This document shows positions 29,881 through 55,439 of a stretch of 64,000 nt of DNA, in pieces. Below the pieces are notes generated by a model. The model had not been told where the DNA came from, ran no database searches, and was given only the letters and a program-made list of their open reading frames with translations. Position 1 is the stretch's first letter, and every line of letters starts with the position of its first letter. A program made the translations under genes and the position numbers. This stretch comes from Eledone cirrhosa (lineage: Eukaryota), in the NCBI GenBank assembly GCA_964016885.1, contig OZ024740.1:268460001-268524000 (forward strand), written 5' to 3'.

Positions 29881-30310
29881 CTACACCTGTATACATATCT
29901 ACCTAGTTGATCTGTAAATTCCAATAAGAGAGTCTTGTAACTGTTAGAAACCGACACTCTCTCTCTATTGGCAAAAATTTGTGAAATTATAAAACCAGAA
30001 GAACATACATACATATATATACATACATACATATGTTTTCCTTTATTACTGAAGTTTAACACGACTTTATACACGTACGATGAAAAGGAGAACTATGAAA
30101 AGAATGGAGTTTTATCTGTTTGTAAATGGTTTGTTGAGTTACGTTTTACTTTGAATATCCTAGAGTAATGAGGGCAGGACTAGTTGGGTTGTGGGACAAT
30201 TTGAGGATTTTGCGTACAGTTTTTCTTTTTCCCCTTTACCTATTCTATTGCACTATGCGCTCTGCTTCGCAGACTATATATATATACGGAGAGAGAGAGA
30301 GAGAGAGAGA

Positions 30311-30462
30311 GAAGTAGTAACACAACAGTTAGTTCACTCGCATAAGGTGAAACAATTGTTCTCAGTATGGTGAACTAACTGTTGTGTTACCACTTCTACC
30401 TAACCCGTCCCATGGACTGAGTGGTCTACCACTACGGATATTACCTTCCAGTGTTCTACCGC
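30311..30462 (+). mobile_element. Family C fold-back copy
   Basis: Homologous to 17190-17403; turns back at HHR stem II. Confidence 0.75.
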
Positions 30463-30572
30463 TCTCTCTCTCTCTCTCTCTCTGTCTCTCTCTCTCTCTC
30501 TCTCTCTGTCTCTCTCTCTCTCTCTCTCTCTATATATATATATATATATATATATATATATATATATATATA

Positions 30573-30973
30573 TAACGAAGAAGATGTGGTAAGGAACCAG
30601 ATGCAATATTTAATACTTAGGGTAGTAGACTGGGTAATAGGAAAATGTTTAACCCCGACGGCAGAGCTCAACCCTTTTCGACGGCTATTTCTGGAAATAG
30701 CCGTCGAAACGGCTTGAGCTCTGCCGTCGGGGTTAAACATTTTCCTATATATATATATATATATATATATAGGAACGAGTAGGACCTCGACGGATGAGCT
30801 CAAGCCGTTTCGACGGCTAATTCTGGACTATTTTAGTCCAGAATTAGCCGTCGAAACGGCTTGAGCTCAGCCGTCGGGGTCCTACTCGTTCCTATTACCC
30901 ACTCTACTACCCTAAGTATTGAGTACTTTGGTGAGTTATGGTTCACCTGGTTCCTTATCACATTTCCTTCGTT
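30573..30973. mobile_element. Two family A fold-back elements separated by (TA)n
   Basis: Hairpins centred near 30691 and 30833. Confidence 0.8.
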
Positions 30974-31014
30974 ATATATGTATATATATATATATATATA
31001 TATATATATATATA

Positions 31015-31522
31015 TAGGTATGTATACGTACATAGATATATGTATACAAACGTACAGTAGTATGTATATATATACATACATGCACAAATATATATGTACG
31101 TATGGGTTTACCGAACATTTATTATAATGTTCGGTTTGTTTGTAAACAAACAGCATAAGGAAAGTATATACTTTCAGACGTTCAATCATCTGGCAGGAAG
31201 GTATACGATGCTGACGATAGCTAATAAGCTTGAAACTAGTACATCGTTCCTGTGTCAGTGTTGAACCAAAGGTGACGTTGGTTGCCTGAACGCTGTACGG
31301 CGAAATTCGGGCTGTTTGTTTGTTTACAAACAAACCGAACATTATAATAAATTTTCGGTAAACCCATACGTACATATATATGTGTGCATGTATATATATA
31401 TATATATACATACTACTGTACGTCTGTATACATATATGTATGTACGTAGACATACATACTTACATTTAAGTATCAGCCGTACTAAGAATGAGAAATGAAA
31501 TTTCGTTTCATTGTTTTCCATT
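31015..31522 (+). mobile_element. Family I element with inverted arms and intact HHR at 31205-31247
   Basis: ACGAUG-CUGACGA-uAGCUaauaAGCUu-GAA-ACUAGU-A-CAUCGU; second copy at 54280-54968. Confidence 0.85.
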
Positions 31523-31639
31523 TATATATATATATATATATATATATATATATATATATATATATAGGAAAATGTTTAATATATATATATATATATATAT
31601 ATATATATATATATATATATATATATATATATATATATG

Positions 31640-31743
31640 AAAATGTTTAACCCCGACGGCAGAGCTCAAGCCGTTTCGACGGTTATTTCTGGAAATAGCC
31701 GTCGAAATGGGTTGAGCTCTGCCGTCGGGTTAAACATTTTCCT
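31640..31743. mobile_element. Family A fold-back
   Basis: Near-perfect 100-bp palindrome between (TA)n tracts. Confidence 0.8.
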
Positions 31744-52062: not shown

Positions 52063-52333
52063 TGTGTATATATATATATATATATATATATATATATATA
52101 TATATATATATATATATATATATATATACAAAGTGTTAAAACGATCAAATTTTAGTTTAGAACATTTATCTGCTGACAATTGTTTCTTCCAGAGGGAAGT
52201 CTTGATTCATTAAAGCATATATATATATATATATATATATATATATATATATATATATATATATATATATATATATATTAATATATATATATATATATAT
52301 ATATATATATATATATATATATATATATATATA

Positions 52334-52752
52334 TTAATAAAAGGAATTCCAACTTTGTCTGATTTACTCGTTTTATTTACAATCCTTTAAAATTTATAAT
52401 GGTATTAGAATGAAATAGTATGGTAGAATATTAAATGTTAAGTGTTAATTGAACAAGTACTTTCATGCTTTCGCGATCTTCAGGTTCATATTCTGTGATG
52501 ACAGTCAAGTTTGCAATTTCCACAGTTGAAAATTGCAAACTTGACTGTCACCACAGCATATGAACCTAAAGATTGCGAAAGCATGAAAGTACTTGTTCAA
52601 TTAACACTTAACATTTAATATTCTACCATACTATTTCATTCTAATACCATTATAAATTTTAAAGGATTGTAAATAAAACGAGTAAATCAGACAAAGTTGG
52701 AATTCCTTTTATTAATATAATCTTCTATACACAATCATACACACCCGTGTAT
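52334..52752. mobile_element. Family K fold-back with HHR (52450-52488 minus intact; 52561-52599 plus with G5A)
   Basis: UGAAC-CUGAAGA-ucGCgaaaGCau-GAA-AGUACU-U-GUUCA; apex near 52524. Confidence 0.85.
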
Positions 52753-52789
52753 GTATATATATATATATATATATATATATATATATATA

Positions 52790-54125
52790 AGGAAAAAAAA
52801 TGAAATCGAAAATGCAACTGAAGTCTTTTTATTTTAAATATATTTATTTGGTTCCTTTACCGGTTTCGCAGTTCTTGTACGTTTCAAACGTAGAATTGAG
52901 ATGGAGAGTTTGTGGTTTTCTCACATCTGGTTGGTGTTCGAATCTTACTTCTGTTTTATATGGAAAAAAGTGGCTCGAAATGCTGTTTTTAGAGAAGTAA
53001 TTTGATTGGTTCATGACTGTCATGTGAATAAGTATAATAAATTTCGCGCCTGTTCACTTTACAAAGTTCTAATTATATTTGTCTTAAAAAAAAGGGGAGG
53101 GGGGTCCAATTGTTTTTTCATATGAGGGAAGTTTGATTGGTCGATGCAGTCACGTGAATAAGCGCATCAGCTTTCGCGCCAGTTTGTGTTTGAAATTCTT
53201 TTGACTTAAAAAAAGTGGCTCACGAAGGCTTTTTTTATAAATCTAATTTGATTGGTTATAAATGAAATTATGACTCTCACGTGAACAAGTACATTAAATT
53301 CGCGCCCGTATTTTGGAAATTTGTTGTAACCATTTAGAGAATTTTGTGTCAAACAAAAGGTAATGGTCAAGAAAAAGGGGATGGAGAGAATTGTTCTGGT
53401 TCAGTGAGTATAGCTGATGTGCTGAAATGTAATTTGATTGGTTATAAATGAAATTATGACTGTCACGTGAACAAGTACATTAAATTTCGCGCCCGTATTT
53501 GAGAATTTCCTTTGTAAGCATTTAGAGAATGTTGTGCCAAACAAAAGATAATGTTCAAGAAAAACGGGATGGGGAGAATTGTTCTGGTTCGGTGAGTATA
53601 GCTGGTATGCTGGGGTGTCAAAATTCAGACTTTCTATTGAAATAAAGAAAGTAGAGATATGTATGTTTATTTGTATGCTGGTGTGTGTGTGTGTGTGTGT
53701 GTGTGTGTCTGTGTGTGTGTGTGTGTGTGTGTGTGTGTAGGAAGATGATTCTATTAGTAGAAATGGGGTAGGGAGCTGTGTGTGTGTGTGTATGTGTGTG
53801 TGGGAGTATGGTTAGCATGTTAAGATGGAGAGAATATATAAAAAATGTTCGCTCTACATGGCTGAATATAATAAATGTAATCTGAGTGTTTAGAATATTA
53901 ATAATAACATTCGTTTCGTTTGCAATTATATAAACAATCCTCATTTTTAACGCCATGTCAGTAGAATGAGCCCCTCATTCTTGCTCTTGTGTTTACATGC
54001 AAACACAAGTGCATGAATGAGGGGCTCATTCTACTGACATGGCTTTAAAAATGAGGATTGTTTGCATAATTGCAAACGAATCGAATGTTATTATTAATAT
54101 TCTAAACACTCAGATTACATTTATT
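52790..54125 (-). mobile_element. Longer member of the 3478 family: PLE 3' region with internal tandem repeats and a 5' fold-back (apex near 53997)
   Basis: 52790-52925 homologous to 3545-3685; arms 53868-53996 / 53998-54125; apex translates ACKHKSK...* like a Naiad C-terminus. Confidence 0.7.
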
Positions 54126-54279
54126 ATATATATATATATATATATACTTATTGAGGCCAGTTACTACAATGGCGCCATACCAGGTACGTACGTTTCATTA
54201 GCCCTCAGGACGAACATTGTTCAATCTGTGCCGATGAAAATGAACCAGAAATTCTATACCTTGCAGATTTTATTATTAA

Positions 54280-54968
54280 TATATATAAGTATGTATACGT
54301 ACATACATATATGTATACAGACGTACAGTAGTATGTATATATATATATATACATGTTTATATACATATATATATATATATATATATATATATACATACTA
54401 TATATATATATATACATATATATATATATATATACATACTACTGTACGCCTGTATACATATATGTATGTACGTATACATACTTATATTTAAGTAACAGCC
54501 GGTCTAAGAGTGAGAAATGAAATTTCGTTTCATTTTTTCCGTTTATCGTTTTCGGTACCCCGGCCGATTAACTCACTGGATATGCAAATTAGGCTGCTCA
54601 GTCGTTAATATGCATAGGGAAAGTATATACTTTCAGACGTTCAATCATCTGGCAGGAAGGTATACGTTGCTGACGATAGCTAATAAGCTTGAAACTAGTA
54701 CAGTGTTCCTTTGTCAGTGTTGAACAAATGAGCAACGATGGTTGCTAGACACTACGGCTTAATTCGGGATGTTTGTTTACAAACACACCGAGCATTATAA
54801 TAAATGTTCGGTGAATCCATACGTACATATATATATGTGTGCATGTATGTATATATACATACTACTGTACGTCTGTATACATATATGTATGTACGTGCAC
54901 ATACTTATATTTAAGTAACAGCCGTACTAAGAGTGAGAAATGAAATTTCGTTTATTTTTTCCGATTAT
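54280..54968 (+). mobile_element. Family I element with intact HHR at 54664-54706
   Basis: ACGUUG-CUGACGA-uAGCUaauaAGCUu-GAAACUAGUA-CAGUGU. Confidence 0.85.
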
Positions 54969-55439
54969 TAATATATATATATGTATATAGTGTGTGTGTG
55001 TGTGTGTGTGTGTGTGTGTGTGTGTGTGTGTGTGTGTGTGTGTGTGTGTGTGTGTGTGTGCGTGTGTGTGTAGTAATTACAACAGGCATAGTAAATGTAC
55101 TAAAAGTAAAAAAATACCCACATTAATTAACTACAACCTGGAAGGAGGGCATCTTAAAATTGAGTTAAAAATCACAAAAAAAAGTATATTTTTCTCACTC
55201 TCGTTACTAAGTGAGTTCAAAATCTCACGTGCAATGTATAAATTCTCAAATTTCATTATTATCCTGTTAGTGATATCTGACCGAGACTACCAGCTAAAAG
55301 ATAACAGTCTGCTTGCTAAAAGGTCAGCAGTTAGCGATAGATACCATAAAGATTTGCAGACAGTTAGTGTAACTAATGGGAAGACTACTGAAATGGTGAG
55401 CTTTTAAGGCTGATTTCGCTTCCTCTTAACAGGAGGCTC

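Follow-up and report, generated by a model that had tools for sequence, protein, structure and literature searches.

The window analysed here is a 64,000-nucleotide (nt) stretch of the 3.0-Gb genome assembly of Eledone cirrhosa (positions 268,460,001-268,524,000). Between window positions 30300 and 54970, referred to as the range, it holds a dense series of short units set between (TA)n tracts. Many of them are inverted, so that two arms of the same sequence stand head to head, and one long unit carries the coding sequence of a Penelope-like element (PLE). The feature is real, the elements are of known kinds and the hairpins are no new class. We read the range as a hotspot of 5'-truncated PLE insertions and of retrozyme-like tandems lacking an open reading frame (ORF), inserted in (TA)n, and we propose that the head-to-head arms were made by twin priming, with one template copied from two fixed starting points. 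Our probability for both parts of this reading together is roughly 70%. Family letters are those of this analysis and negative positions are counted back from the distal 3' end of a family (-1).

For comparison we used 100 stretches of 10 kb, 20 of them evenly spaced and 80 picked by family searches. Inverted insertions were counted once each and TA was required on both flanks. The range (24.7 kb) contains 14 such insertions or 5.7 per 10 kb, compared to 10 in the 200 kb of the evenly spaced sample (0.5 per 10 kb), and the family-selected stretches had a mean of 1.4 per stretch. The pattern is genome-wide and the range is about eleven times denser. Self-comparison of the window recovered the inverted repeats which a sequence-only reading of this DNA had listed, including those at 3478, 10985 and 17190, and the statement that most blocks are inverted just holds with 17 of 34 hand-delimited blocks (19 if the J2/J3 pair is included). 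The same reading had described hammerhead ribozymes whose 3' ends face outward into the (TA)n. In the 100 stretches the descriptor detects a hammerhead in 49 distinct inverted repeats; we confirmed this polarity for 44 of them, among which are 30 of the 30 that are TA-bounded. Two of the five inward cases were inspected and are separate neighbours facing each other over a TA tract; the other three have gaps of 850-3301 nt. An extra tail on one arm was also found as described, measuring 33-161 nt depending on the family.

The parents of the units were identified by single-arm searches of the genome, in which the queries for A and C were free of the apex (one arm; 3' end). Judged by their motifs, on which the placement rests, seven families appear to be the 3' ends of PLEs with ORF-bearing parents: B, C, D and G of the Hydra type and A, H and P of a Neptune or Nematis type, two groups that were not told apart for these three families. 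The sequence-only reading was right in taking the units as TA-primed insertions mobilised by PLEs. The parents, together with junctions that vary between copies, are for most units the very outcome which it had named as reducing them to ordinary truncated PLEs. Family D is very young, with its top 40 matches at 99-100%. In 6 loci examined, its unit of 4198 nt carries an ORF of 832 aa that is intact, with the motifs DKT, RWR in place of RWK, a CxCx5C linker, CxxC, CxH, YRDD and YVG, and it targets (TA)n; the motif set given for the Hydra clade in section 11 of PMC8557442 is matched. Pfam reported neither a reverse transcriptase (RT) nor a GIY-YIG match on the D ORF. The units B, C, G and N sit downstream of coding sequence that aligns to this ORF. 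The window copy of D (38164-39398, minus strand) is an inverted, 5'-truncated insertion with a 161-nt tail on the left, and its arms (38325-38725 and 38994-39394) are 100% identical and have one private hammerhead change in common.

For P (45737-50816, plus strand) the RT and GIY-YIG regions noted earlier at 46912-48503 were confirmed by Pfam (RVT_1 at 46912-47622, GIY-YIG to 48503), and the element has the DKG motif and a Cx4CxxC linker. The element itself is broken: it is frameshifted over three reading frames and about 1.2 kb of its 5' end is gone. It has an inverted arm at 45737-46265, a 33-nt tail and a microsatellite 3' region. The parent of H shows the Cx4CxxC linker of the Neptune/Nematis type, and in the parent of A, a family assigned by similarity, GIY-YIG is found at the Pfam cut-off. 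The pseudo-LTR layout (LTR, long terminal repeat) is seen in D, where 8 insertions exceed one unit and 27 are inverted, and P and A also form partial tandems. Families F (543 nt), J (424 nt) and M3 (612 nt) are head-to-tail arrays without a protein ORF, their longest ATG frames having 29, 49 and 59 aa. They would fit published non-LTR retrozymes as a retrozyme-like, non-autonomous component. A type I hammerhead is present in one F unit and in the copies of F and J that lie in the window (the units being 88-100% alike), and in M3 it is weak and was seen in one copy. Family K and a small piece at 39426 may resemble these tandems.

Nearly all units had been credited with a type I hammerhead, a figure which our scans reduce considerably. 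Strict descriptors missed long-stem and variant cores and we therefore used a widened type I descriptor, scored against 20 shuffles per block (8 for the long block N). It beat all shuffles in 10 of the 34 blocks of the range, while five blocks (B1-B3, E2 and U0) contain the 3' half of the hammerhead only. The window copies of D and H have mutated cores, and for S and G the hammerhead was seen by eye or at the family level. No hammerhead was detected by the descriptor scan in P, K1, K2, M1, Q, I, T or four blocks of 80-90 nt. A stricter descriptor gave 6 matches across the range compared to a mean of 0.0 in 25 shuffles. Among family copies spanning the site the descriptor was passed by 59/60 for D, 57/64 for C, 60/79 for A, 17/25 for G, 7/18 for B and 17/46 for H. 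Rfam gave no match on the window at gathering scores and no hammerhead among the best 150 of 267 sub-threshold matches; many of the sub-threshold matches on the hairpins were microRNAs. Across the 100 stretches we counted 220 descriptor hammerheads, which fall into 76 core/stem variants (among them U3-A8 and C4 cores and stems II above 100 nt). They make up a large predicted ribozyme set, which Rfam misses in the window. Minimum-energy folds recovered stems I and II in 6 of the 8 motifs folded. The fold energy was near or below that of shuffles in only two motifs (O with z -1.8; S with z -3.3 in a non-hammerhead fold) and we therefore dropped folding energy as evidence. In family H a subfamily with a G5-to-A core change has multiplied in long as well as short copies (loci L338-L367), hinting that cleavage is perhaps needless for insertion.

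All examined families end at one of two sites. We located these at -1/-57 in A, -1/-78 in B, -1/-82 in C, -1/-162 in D, -1/-86 in E, -1/-115 in F, -1/-134 in G, -1/-35 in H, -3/-58 in J and -1/-34 in P. The sample for end pairing comprised 1586 distinct TA-bounded blocks, 127 of which were head to head with both ends at known sites. In 125 of these hairpins a distal end was paired with a proximal one; one pair was both distal, one both proximal and none joined two families. Furthermore 12 of 26 proximal ends showed one or two reiterations of the first 7-9 copied bases, and in two non-inverted copies the left end consisted of such a reiterated stub only. Reiterated starts are what work on long interspersed nuclear elements (LINEs) leads one to expect of a priming site, so their location at the proximal end fits with priming there.

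The lengths of the two arms bear on how the hairpins were made. The sequence-only reading had suggested a fold-back of the cDNA, and in its full form this explanation assumes that a single strand is primed, that the cDNA (or else an antisense RNA) turns back to serve as its own template, that the endonuclease sets the proximal end and that deletions scramble the lengths. Identical arms and one-of-each ends follow from it, as do the palindromic, reiterated apices in C and H, and Craig et al., in their remarks on the tail, credit it to endonuclease resolution (PMC8557442). A self-priming proposal outlined in PMC3846280 is close to it. As a folded-back cDNA copies only what it holds, the tail-less arm could never extend further 5' than the tailed one. 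For family D we resolved 38 insertions from 40 matches, and all 27 inverted ones have one end at -1 and the other at about -162. The tailed arm reached further 5' in 15 of the 27 and the tail-less arm in 12. Nine of these 12 lie within one unit with an excess of 26-2199 nt, which is impossible by self-copying; the other three run past one unit and fold-back could still give them. In eight non-tandem families with 111 resolved hairpins (10 of them D cases) the tail-less arm was longer in 29, the tailed arm in 20 and the two were within 20 nt of each other in 62. Family F had nine cases of either kind among 18 resolved by hand, with 4 irregular or unresolved ones left out, and the window copy of G is itself a tail-less-longer case (-573 versus -381). 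The arm order required by fold-back is broken in 12/27 and 29/111 hairpins, respectively, and the self-priming of PMC3846280, in the form outlined there, shares this failed prediction. Deletions would have had little time to act, as D arms differ by 1 per kb, and the reiterated starts are located at the proximal end. We consider a fold-back origin unlikely.

A second set of observations concerns the source of the arms. In 26 D insertions the arms differed by 1.0 per kb within an insertion, compared to 6.6 between insertions. None of the 23 arm differences recurred elsewhere, whereas 44 of 69 variants common to both arms did, and both arms of an insertion thus appear to derive from one source. 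The arms overlap by at least 2 nt at the junction in 16 of 27 D insertions compared to 16% in simulations (p 4e-7). In eight D insertions the length is greater than one unit, by 245-3142 nt, and variants are shared, so the template may be multimeric or circular, or the RT may jump. Either arm can be longer, and the insertions have two fixed ends, one-of-each pairing, a shared haplotype and microhomology at the junction.

Twin priming on one template accounts for the end pairing, the arm lengths, the haplotypes, the junction overlaps and the reiterated starts. In the proposed sequence of events the endonuclease of the element would nick a TA tract on both strands, and the two free DNA ends would act as primers for reverse transcription of a single RNA, one beginning at the distal start site and the other at the proximal one. 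The two cDNAs would stop independently of each other, pair over 1-8 complementary nt and be completed from one another. For the copied stretches to overlap, strand displacement on one RNA would be required, or else a tandem or circular RNA. An insertion of this kind would leave TA on both flanks, so that later insertions could accumulate locally. The numerous short hairpins in families H, C, B and A might, with less assurance, be run-off copies primed in the 5' pseudo-LTR and halting at the 5' end of the RNA. In the in vitro experiments described for an anole PLE both strands were nicked and extended, synthesis started at two tail-bounding sites and a dimer was predicted (PMC11167929). We hold it at even odds that PLE insertion is coupled twin priming by one complex at the two tail-bounding sites, that retrozymes are copied by the same machinery round a tandem or circular RNA and that cDNAs primed in the 5' pseudo-LTR run off to give hairpins with the apex at the transcription start.

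Several points weigh against twin priming on one template. The evidence consists of finished insertions only and no intermediate was seen. Most queries bore the tail, which hides both-proximal pairs in the count of end pairs and favours long tailed arms (the initial A and C queries were without it). For eleven of the 38 D insertions an inverted arm could not be resolved. Gene conversion between the arms could also yield shared haplotypes, post-insertion deletion could shorten the tailed arm, and one RNA is indistinguishable from two transcripts of one locus. The last point leads to a variant in which twin priming takes place on two RNA molecules held in an asymmetric dimer, both from one active source locus. 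It needs no strand displacement over the arm overlap, which in D is up to 2.9 kb, and a dimer is predicted in PMC11167929. Against it, we encountered no arm pair with differing subfamily haplotypes (the 0/23 recurrent differences) and 0/127 mixed-family pairs despite many active families, and we rate two RNAs as a rather remote alternative.

A further explanation for short hairpins would be a distinct, non-autonomous class of hairpin retrozymes, transcribed and re-inserted whole with a fixed apex, as the sequence-only reading had considered. Counted by hand, 21 of 29 apices in H fall at -216 to -233 (the query reached only -194), 8 of 23 in C at -256 to -264, 33 of 64 unselected tailed arms in B at -127 to -151 and 7 of 29 in A at -283 to -314. 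Such pile-ups are expected of a hairpin class and ORF-less families (F, J and M3) do exist. However, the junction letters vary between nearly all copies (A, C, H), and short and long copies have haplotypes in common within each C subfamily, just as both H core variants occur in both lengths; this points to recurrent stops instead of an inherited hairpin. No arm-specific inherited variants were found in D, and the ORF-less families are tandem with variable apices. The apex is thus variable from copy to copy, as expected of truncation, with pile-ups in H, C, B and A, and a self-propagating class is contradicted by the lack of an inherited fixed apex and by the longer ORF-bearing parents. In A, B, C, D, G, H, P and F it is refuted for the most part, which leaves E, I, S and U as its only candidates, and we regard it as very improbable. 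Least credible of all is that the hairpins are fold-back artefacts of library or assembly, or TA-targeting DNA transposons (miniature inverted-repeat transposable elements, MITEs): a read comparison on D and G gave no record spanning the hairpin junction, an uninformative result, and the arms differ by up to 7%, have family-specific end sites genome-wide and a one-sided tail and adjoin RT/GIY-YIG coding sequence without a break.

The pile-ups themselves may be due to run-off at the 5' end of the RNA or to stalling of the RT at a structure. We prefer run-off, with about one chance in two of being right, because in H the pile-up is closely preceded by an initiator-like word, with a TATA-like word about 28 nt further upstream, and because Penelope transcripts, in the account given in PMC2377424, start in the upstream pseudo-LTR. 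Other observations speak against run-off. Family D shows no preferred apex, with 33 arms at 33 positions, full-length copies lack a common starting point and AT-rich DNA contains initiator-like words in abundance. A cap-derived extra G at the apices was looked for with a null result (Fisher p 0.22-1.0, rows partly double-counted); at position -258 of C a G was observed in 10 of 22 rows where the parent has C, in a subset chosen post hoc. Families B and C both have their pile-up at a CATATG word.

Priming of cDNA from both nicked strands is familiar from L1 twin priming, which leaves an inversion junction with microhomology. In the insertions studied here the second primer would act close to the 3' end, at a site that is fixed, and the result is overlapping arms and a hairpin, not the non-overlapping inversion of L1. 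With the Hydra clade of endonuclease-positive PLEs, as characterised by Craig et al. 2021 (PMC8557442), family D shares DKT, CxCx5C, CxxC, CxH, a C-terminal GIY-YIG-like region and (TA)n targets. It differs from the same description in having RWR where the clade has RWK and in its unit of 4.2 kb, the clade being generally below 3 kb (a tendency, not a criterion). Variant hammerhead cores are a further difference, with C at position 4 in D and U3-A8 in B and G; U3-A8 cores and the TA preference of Hydra are already on record in passages of PMC8557442, PMC3846280 and PMC4209133. The canonical PLE layout of a pseudo-LTR, an inverted 5'-truncated copy and a one-sided tail, as laid out in parts of PMC8557442, PMC3846280 and PMC2377424, has a geometry identical to ours, with tails of 30-40 nt there and 33-161 nt here. 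In the same parts these papers leave the mechanism open or propose self-priming, and the origin of tandem and inverted PLE insertions is named as an open question in PMC8557442. The in vitro work, as far as its results in PMC11167929 go, ends at initiation. Pairs of hammerheads on opposite strands, 100-700 bp apart, were reported for Schistosoma and taken as probable truncated PLEs in the relevant passage of PMC4209133. Retrozymes are presented as PLE derivatives in sections of PMC7229834 and bioRxiv 10.64898/2026.07.22.740005. F and J are likewise ORF-less tandems, with a type I hammerhead in their window copies, their units and that of M3 (424-612 nt) being longer than the approximately 300 nt of these metazoan non-LTR retrozymes. 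Their insertion in (TA)n as arrays that stand head to head and are bounded by two fixed ends is a feature that those retrozyme passages do not describe.

Our literature search found no twin-priming proposal for PLEs; older reviews (Arkhipova 2006; Evgen'ev and Arkhipova 2005) and supplements were outside its scope and may discuss it. The insertion layout is known, and for the mechanism we found no published precedent. The counts distinguish fold-back from twin priming by genome data alone. If coupled twin priming with run-off copying is true, a single step explains why these elements have an inverted copy and a tail on one side and why short hammerhead hairpins occur in swarms, and the intact ORF of the young family D would serve as a test system for the insertion mechanism. 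For annotation, the hairpins are to be treated as neither MITEs nor microRNA precursors nor a new class.

The remaining units of the range are described from left to right. The short hairpin U0 (30313-30463, plus) has a right tail and is flanked by (GA)n/(TC)n adjoining TA; it forms one family with 17190-17403. Three Hydra-type hairpins of family B follow, namely B1 (30575-30745, minus, left tail), B2 (30772-30980, plus, right tail) and B3 (31639-31742), which judging from the sequence apparently has no tail on either arm. Between B2 and B3 lies J1 (31017-31522, plus), an inverted insertion of the 424-nt tandem family J with a type I hammerhead core at 31211. N (31783-34327, minus) is a non-inverted, broken Hydra-type PLE with a hammerhead at 31835-31879, coding remnants at 33020-34022 and a SINE-like repeat (see below) at 34010-34200. 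Single units are K1 (34415-34903, plus), one arm of the 531-nt family K, and M1 (34944-35536), distantly related to M3. The hairpin of A (35672-36223, plus) has arms at 35672-35917 and 35918-36163 (93% alike), hammerhead cores at 35849 (minus) and 35989 (plus) and its tail at 36166-36223.

B4 (36510-36716, minus) consists of one arm of family B, in which the U3-A8 hammerhead is complete (core 36690), and is fused directly to the hairpin of C (36715-37110, plus), whose arms (36751-36930 and 36931-37110) are 99% alike, with hammerheads at 36843 (minus) and 37018 (plus) and the apex at the pile-up site. Across 36510-37110 the B arm stops at -199 and continues straight into C at -61, which was likely a template switch between two Hydra-type RNAs in one cDNA. 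Elsewhere in the genome, at about 5073-5088 of locus L191 (oriented), the 5' junction of a D insertion is joined to a 15-nt start of the distal end of C beside TA, possibly a single mixed-family priming.

M2 (37402-37960, minus) is a single unit with a hammerhead core at 37730. To the right of D follow the small inverted piece at 39426-39645, from a family recurring at about 470-nt spacing elsewhere, and E1 (39662-40241, minus), an inverted insertion with a left tail and a variant hammerhead core at 39816; a short hairpin of the same family, E2, is found at 43083-43301 (minus). F (40359-41086, minus) is an inverted insertion of its tandem unit with hammerheads at 40627 (minus) and 40941 (plus), and K2 (41155-41760, minus) is a non-inverted 531-nt unit plus a 74-nt partial tandem. 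S (41775-42148) contains a hairpin at 41903-42147 with a left tail and hammerhead cores in both arms. G (43719-44536, minus) is an inverted PLE 3' end with a long-stem U3-A8 hammerhead, its tail-less arm on the right and its tailed arm on the left, and M3 (44580-45124, minus) is a single unit of a young family whose tandems occur elsewhere. O (45160-45709, plus) is a non-inverted 3' end related to N with a hammerhead at 45613 and a SINE-like repeat at 45421-45605. To the right of P lie Q (50864-52066), a TA-bounded block without inversion, and the hairpin of H (52335-52753, plus), a PLE 3' end with its apex at the family pile-up site. The range closes with R (52790-53660, minus), a non-inverted relative of the hairpin at 3478-3828, with I (53740-54124), a hairpin at 53871-54124, and with J2/J3 (54147-54970, plus), a partial tandem of family J (period 424) with a hammerhead core at 54670, plus a short inverted piece. 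The TA-bounded blocks 50864-52066 and 42310-42891 have nearly no relatives in the sequence compared.

Outside the range, TA-bounded hairpins or arms were observed at 3478-3828, 4453-4632, 10985-11974, 17190-17403 and 26795-26904, and the 3478 and 10985 hairpins have outward-facing descriptor hammerheads. Older relatives of family A are present at 21046-21348 and 27709-28906, the latter with GIY-YIG coding remnants on the minus strand, broken by a SINE-like repeat. Broken LINE-type RT fragments with a weak RVT_1 match lie at 58626-59672. Short frames at 17504-17935 (minus), 55516-55869, 80-418 and 15521-15877 resemble a piece of a Helitron protein and ends of restriction-like LINE endonucleases; the two that were tested had no Pfam match. 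Finally, a 190-nt repeat, which we take to be like a short interspersed nuclear element (SINE), has ten copies in the window (6602-6811, 8241-8422, 12939-13124, 15139-15359, 24276-24468, 28122-28284, 34010-34198, 45421-45605, 56516-56699 and 63017-63233). It also occurs within the 3' regions of N, O and the parent of G, and may travel with PLEs.

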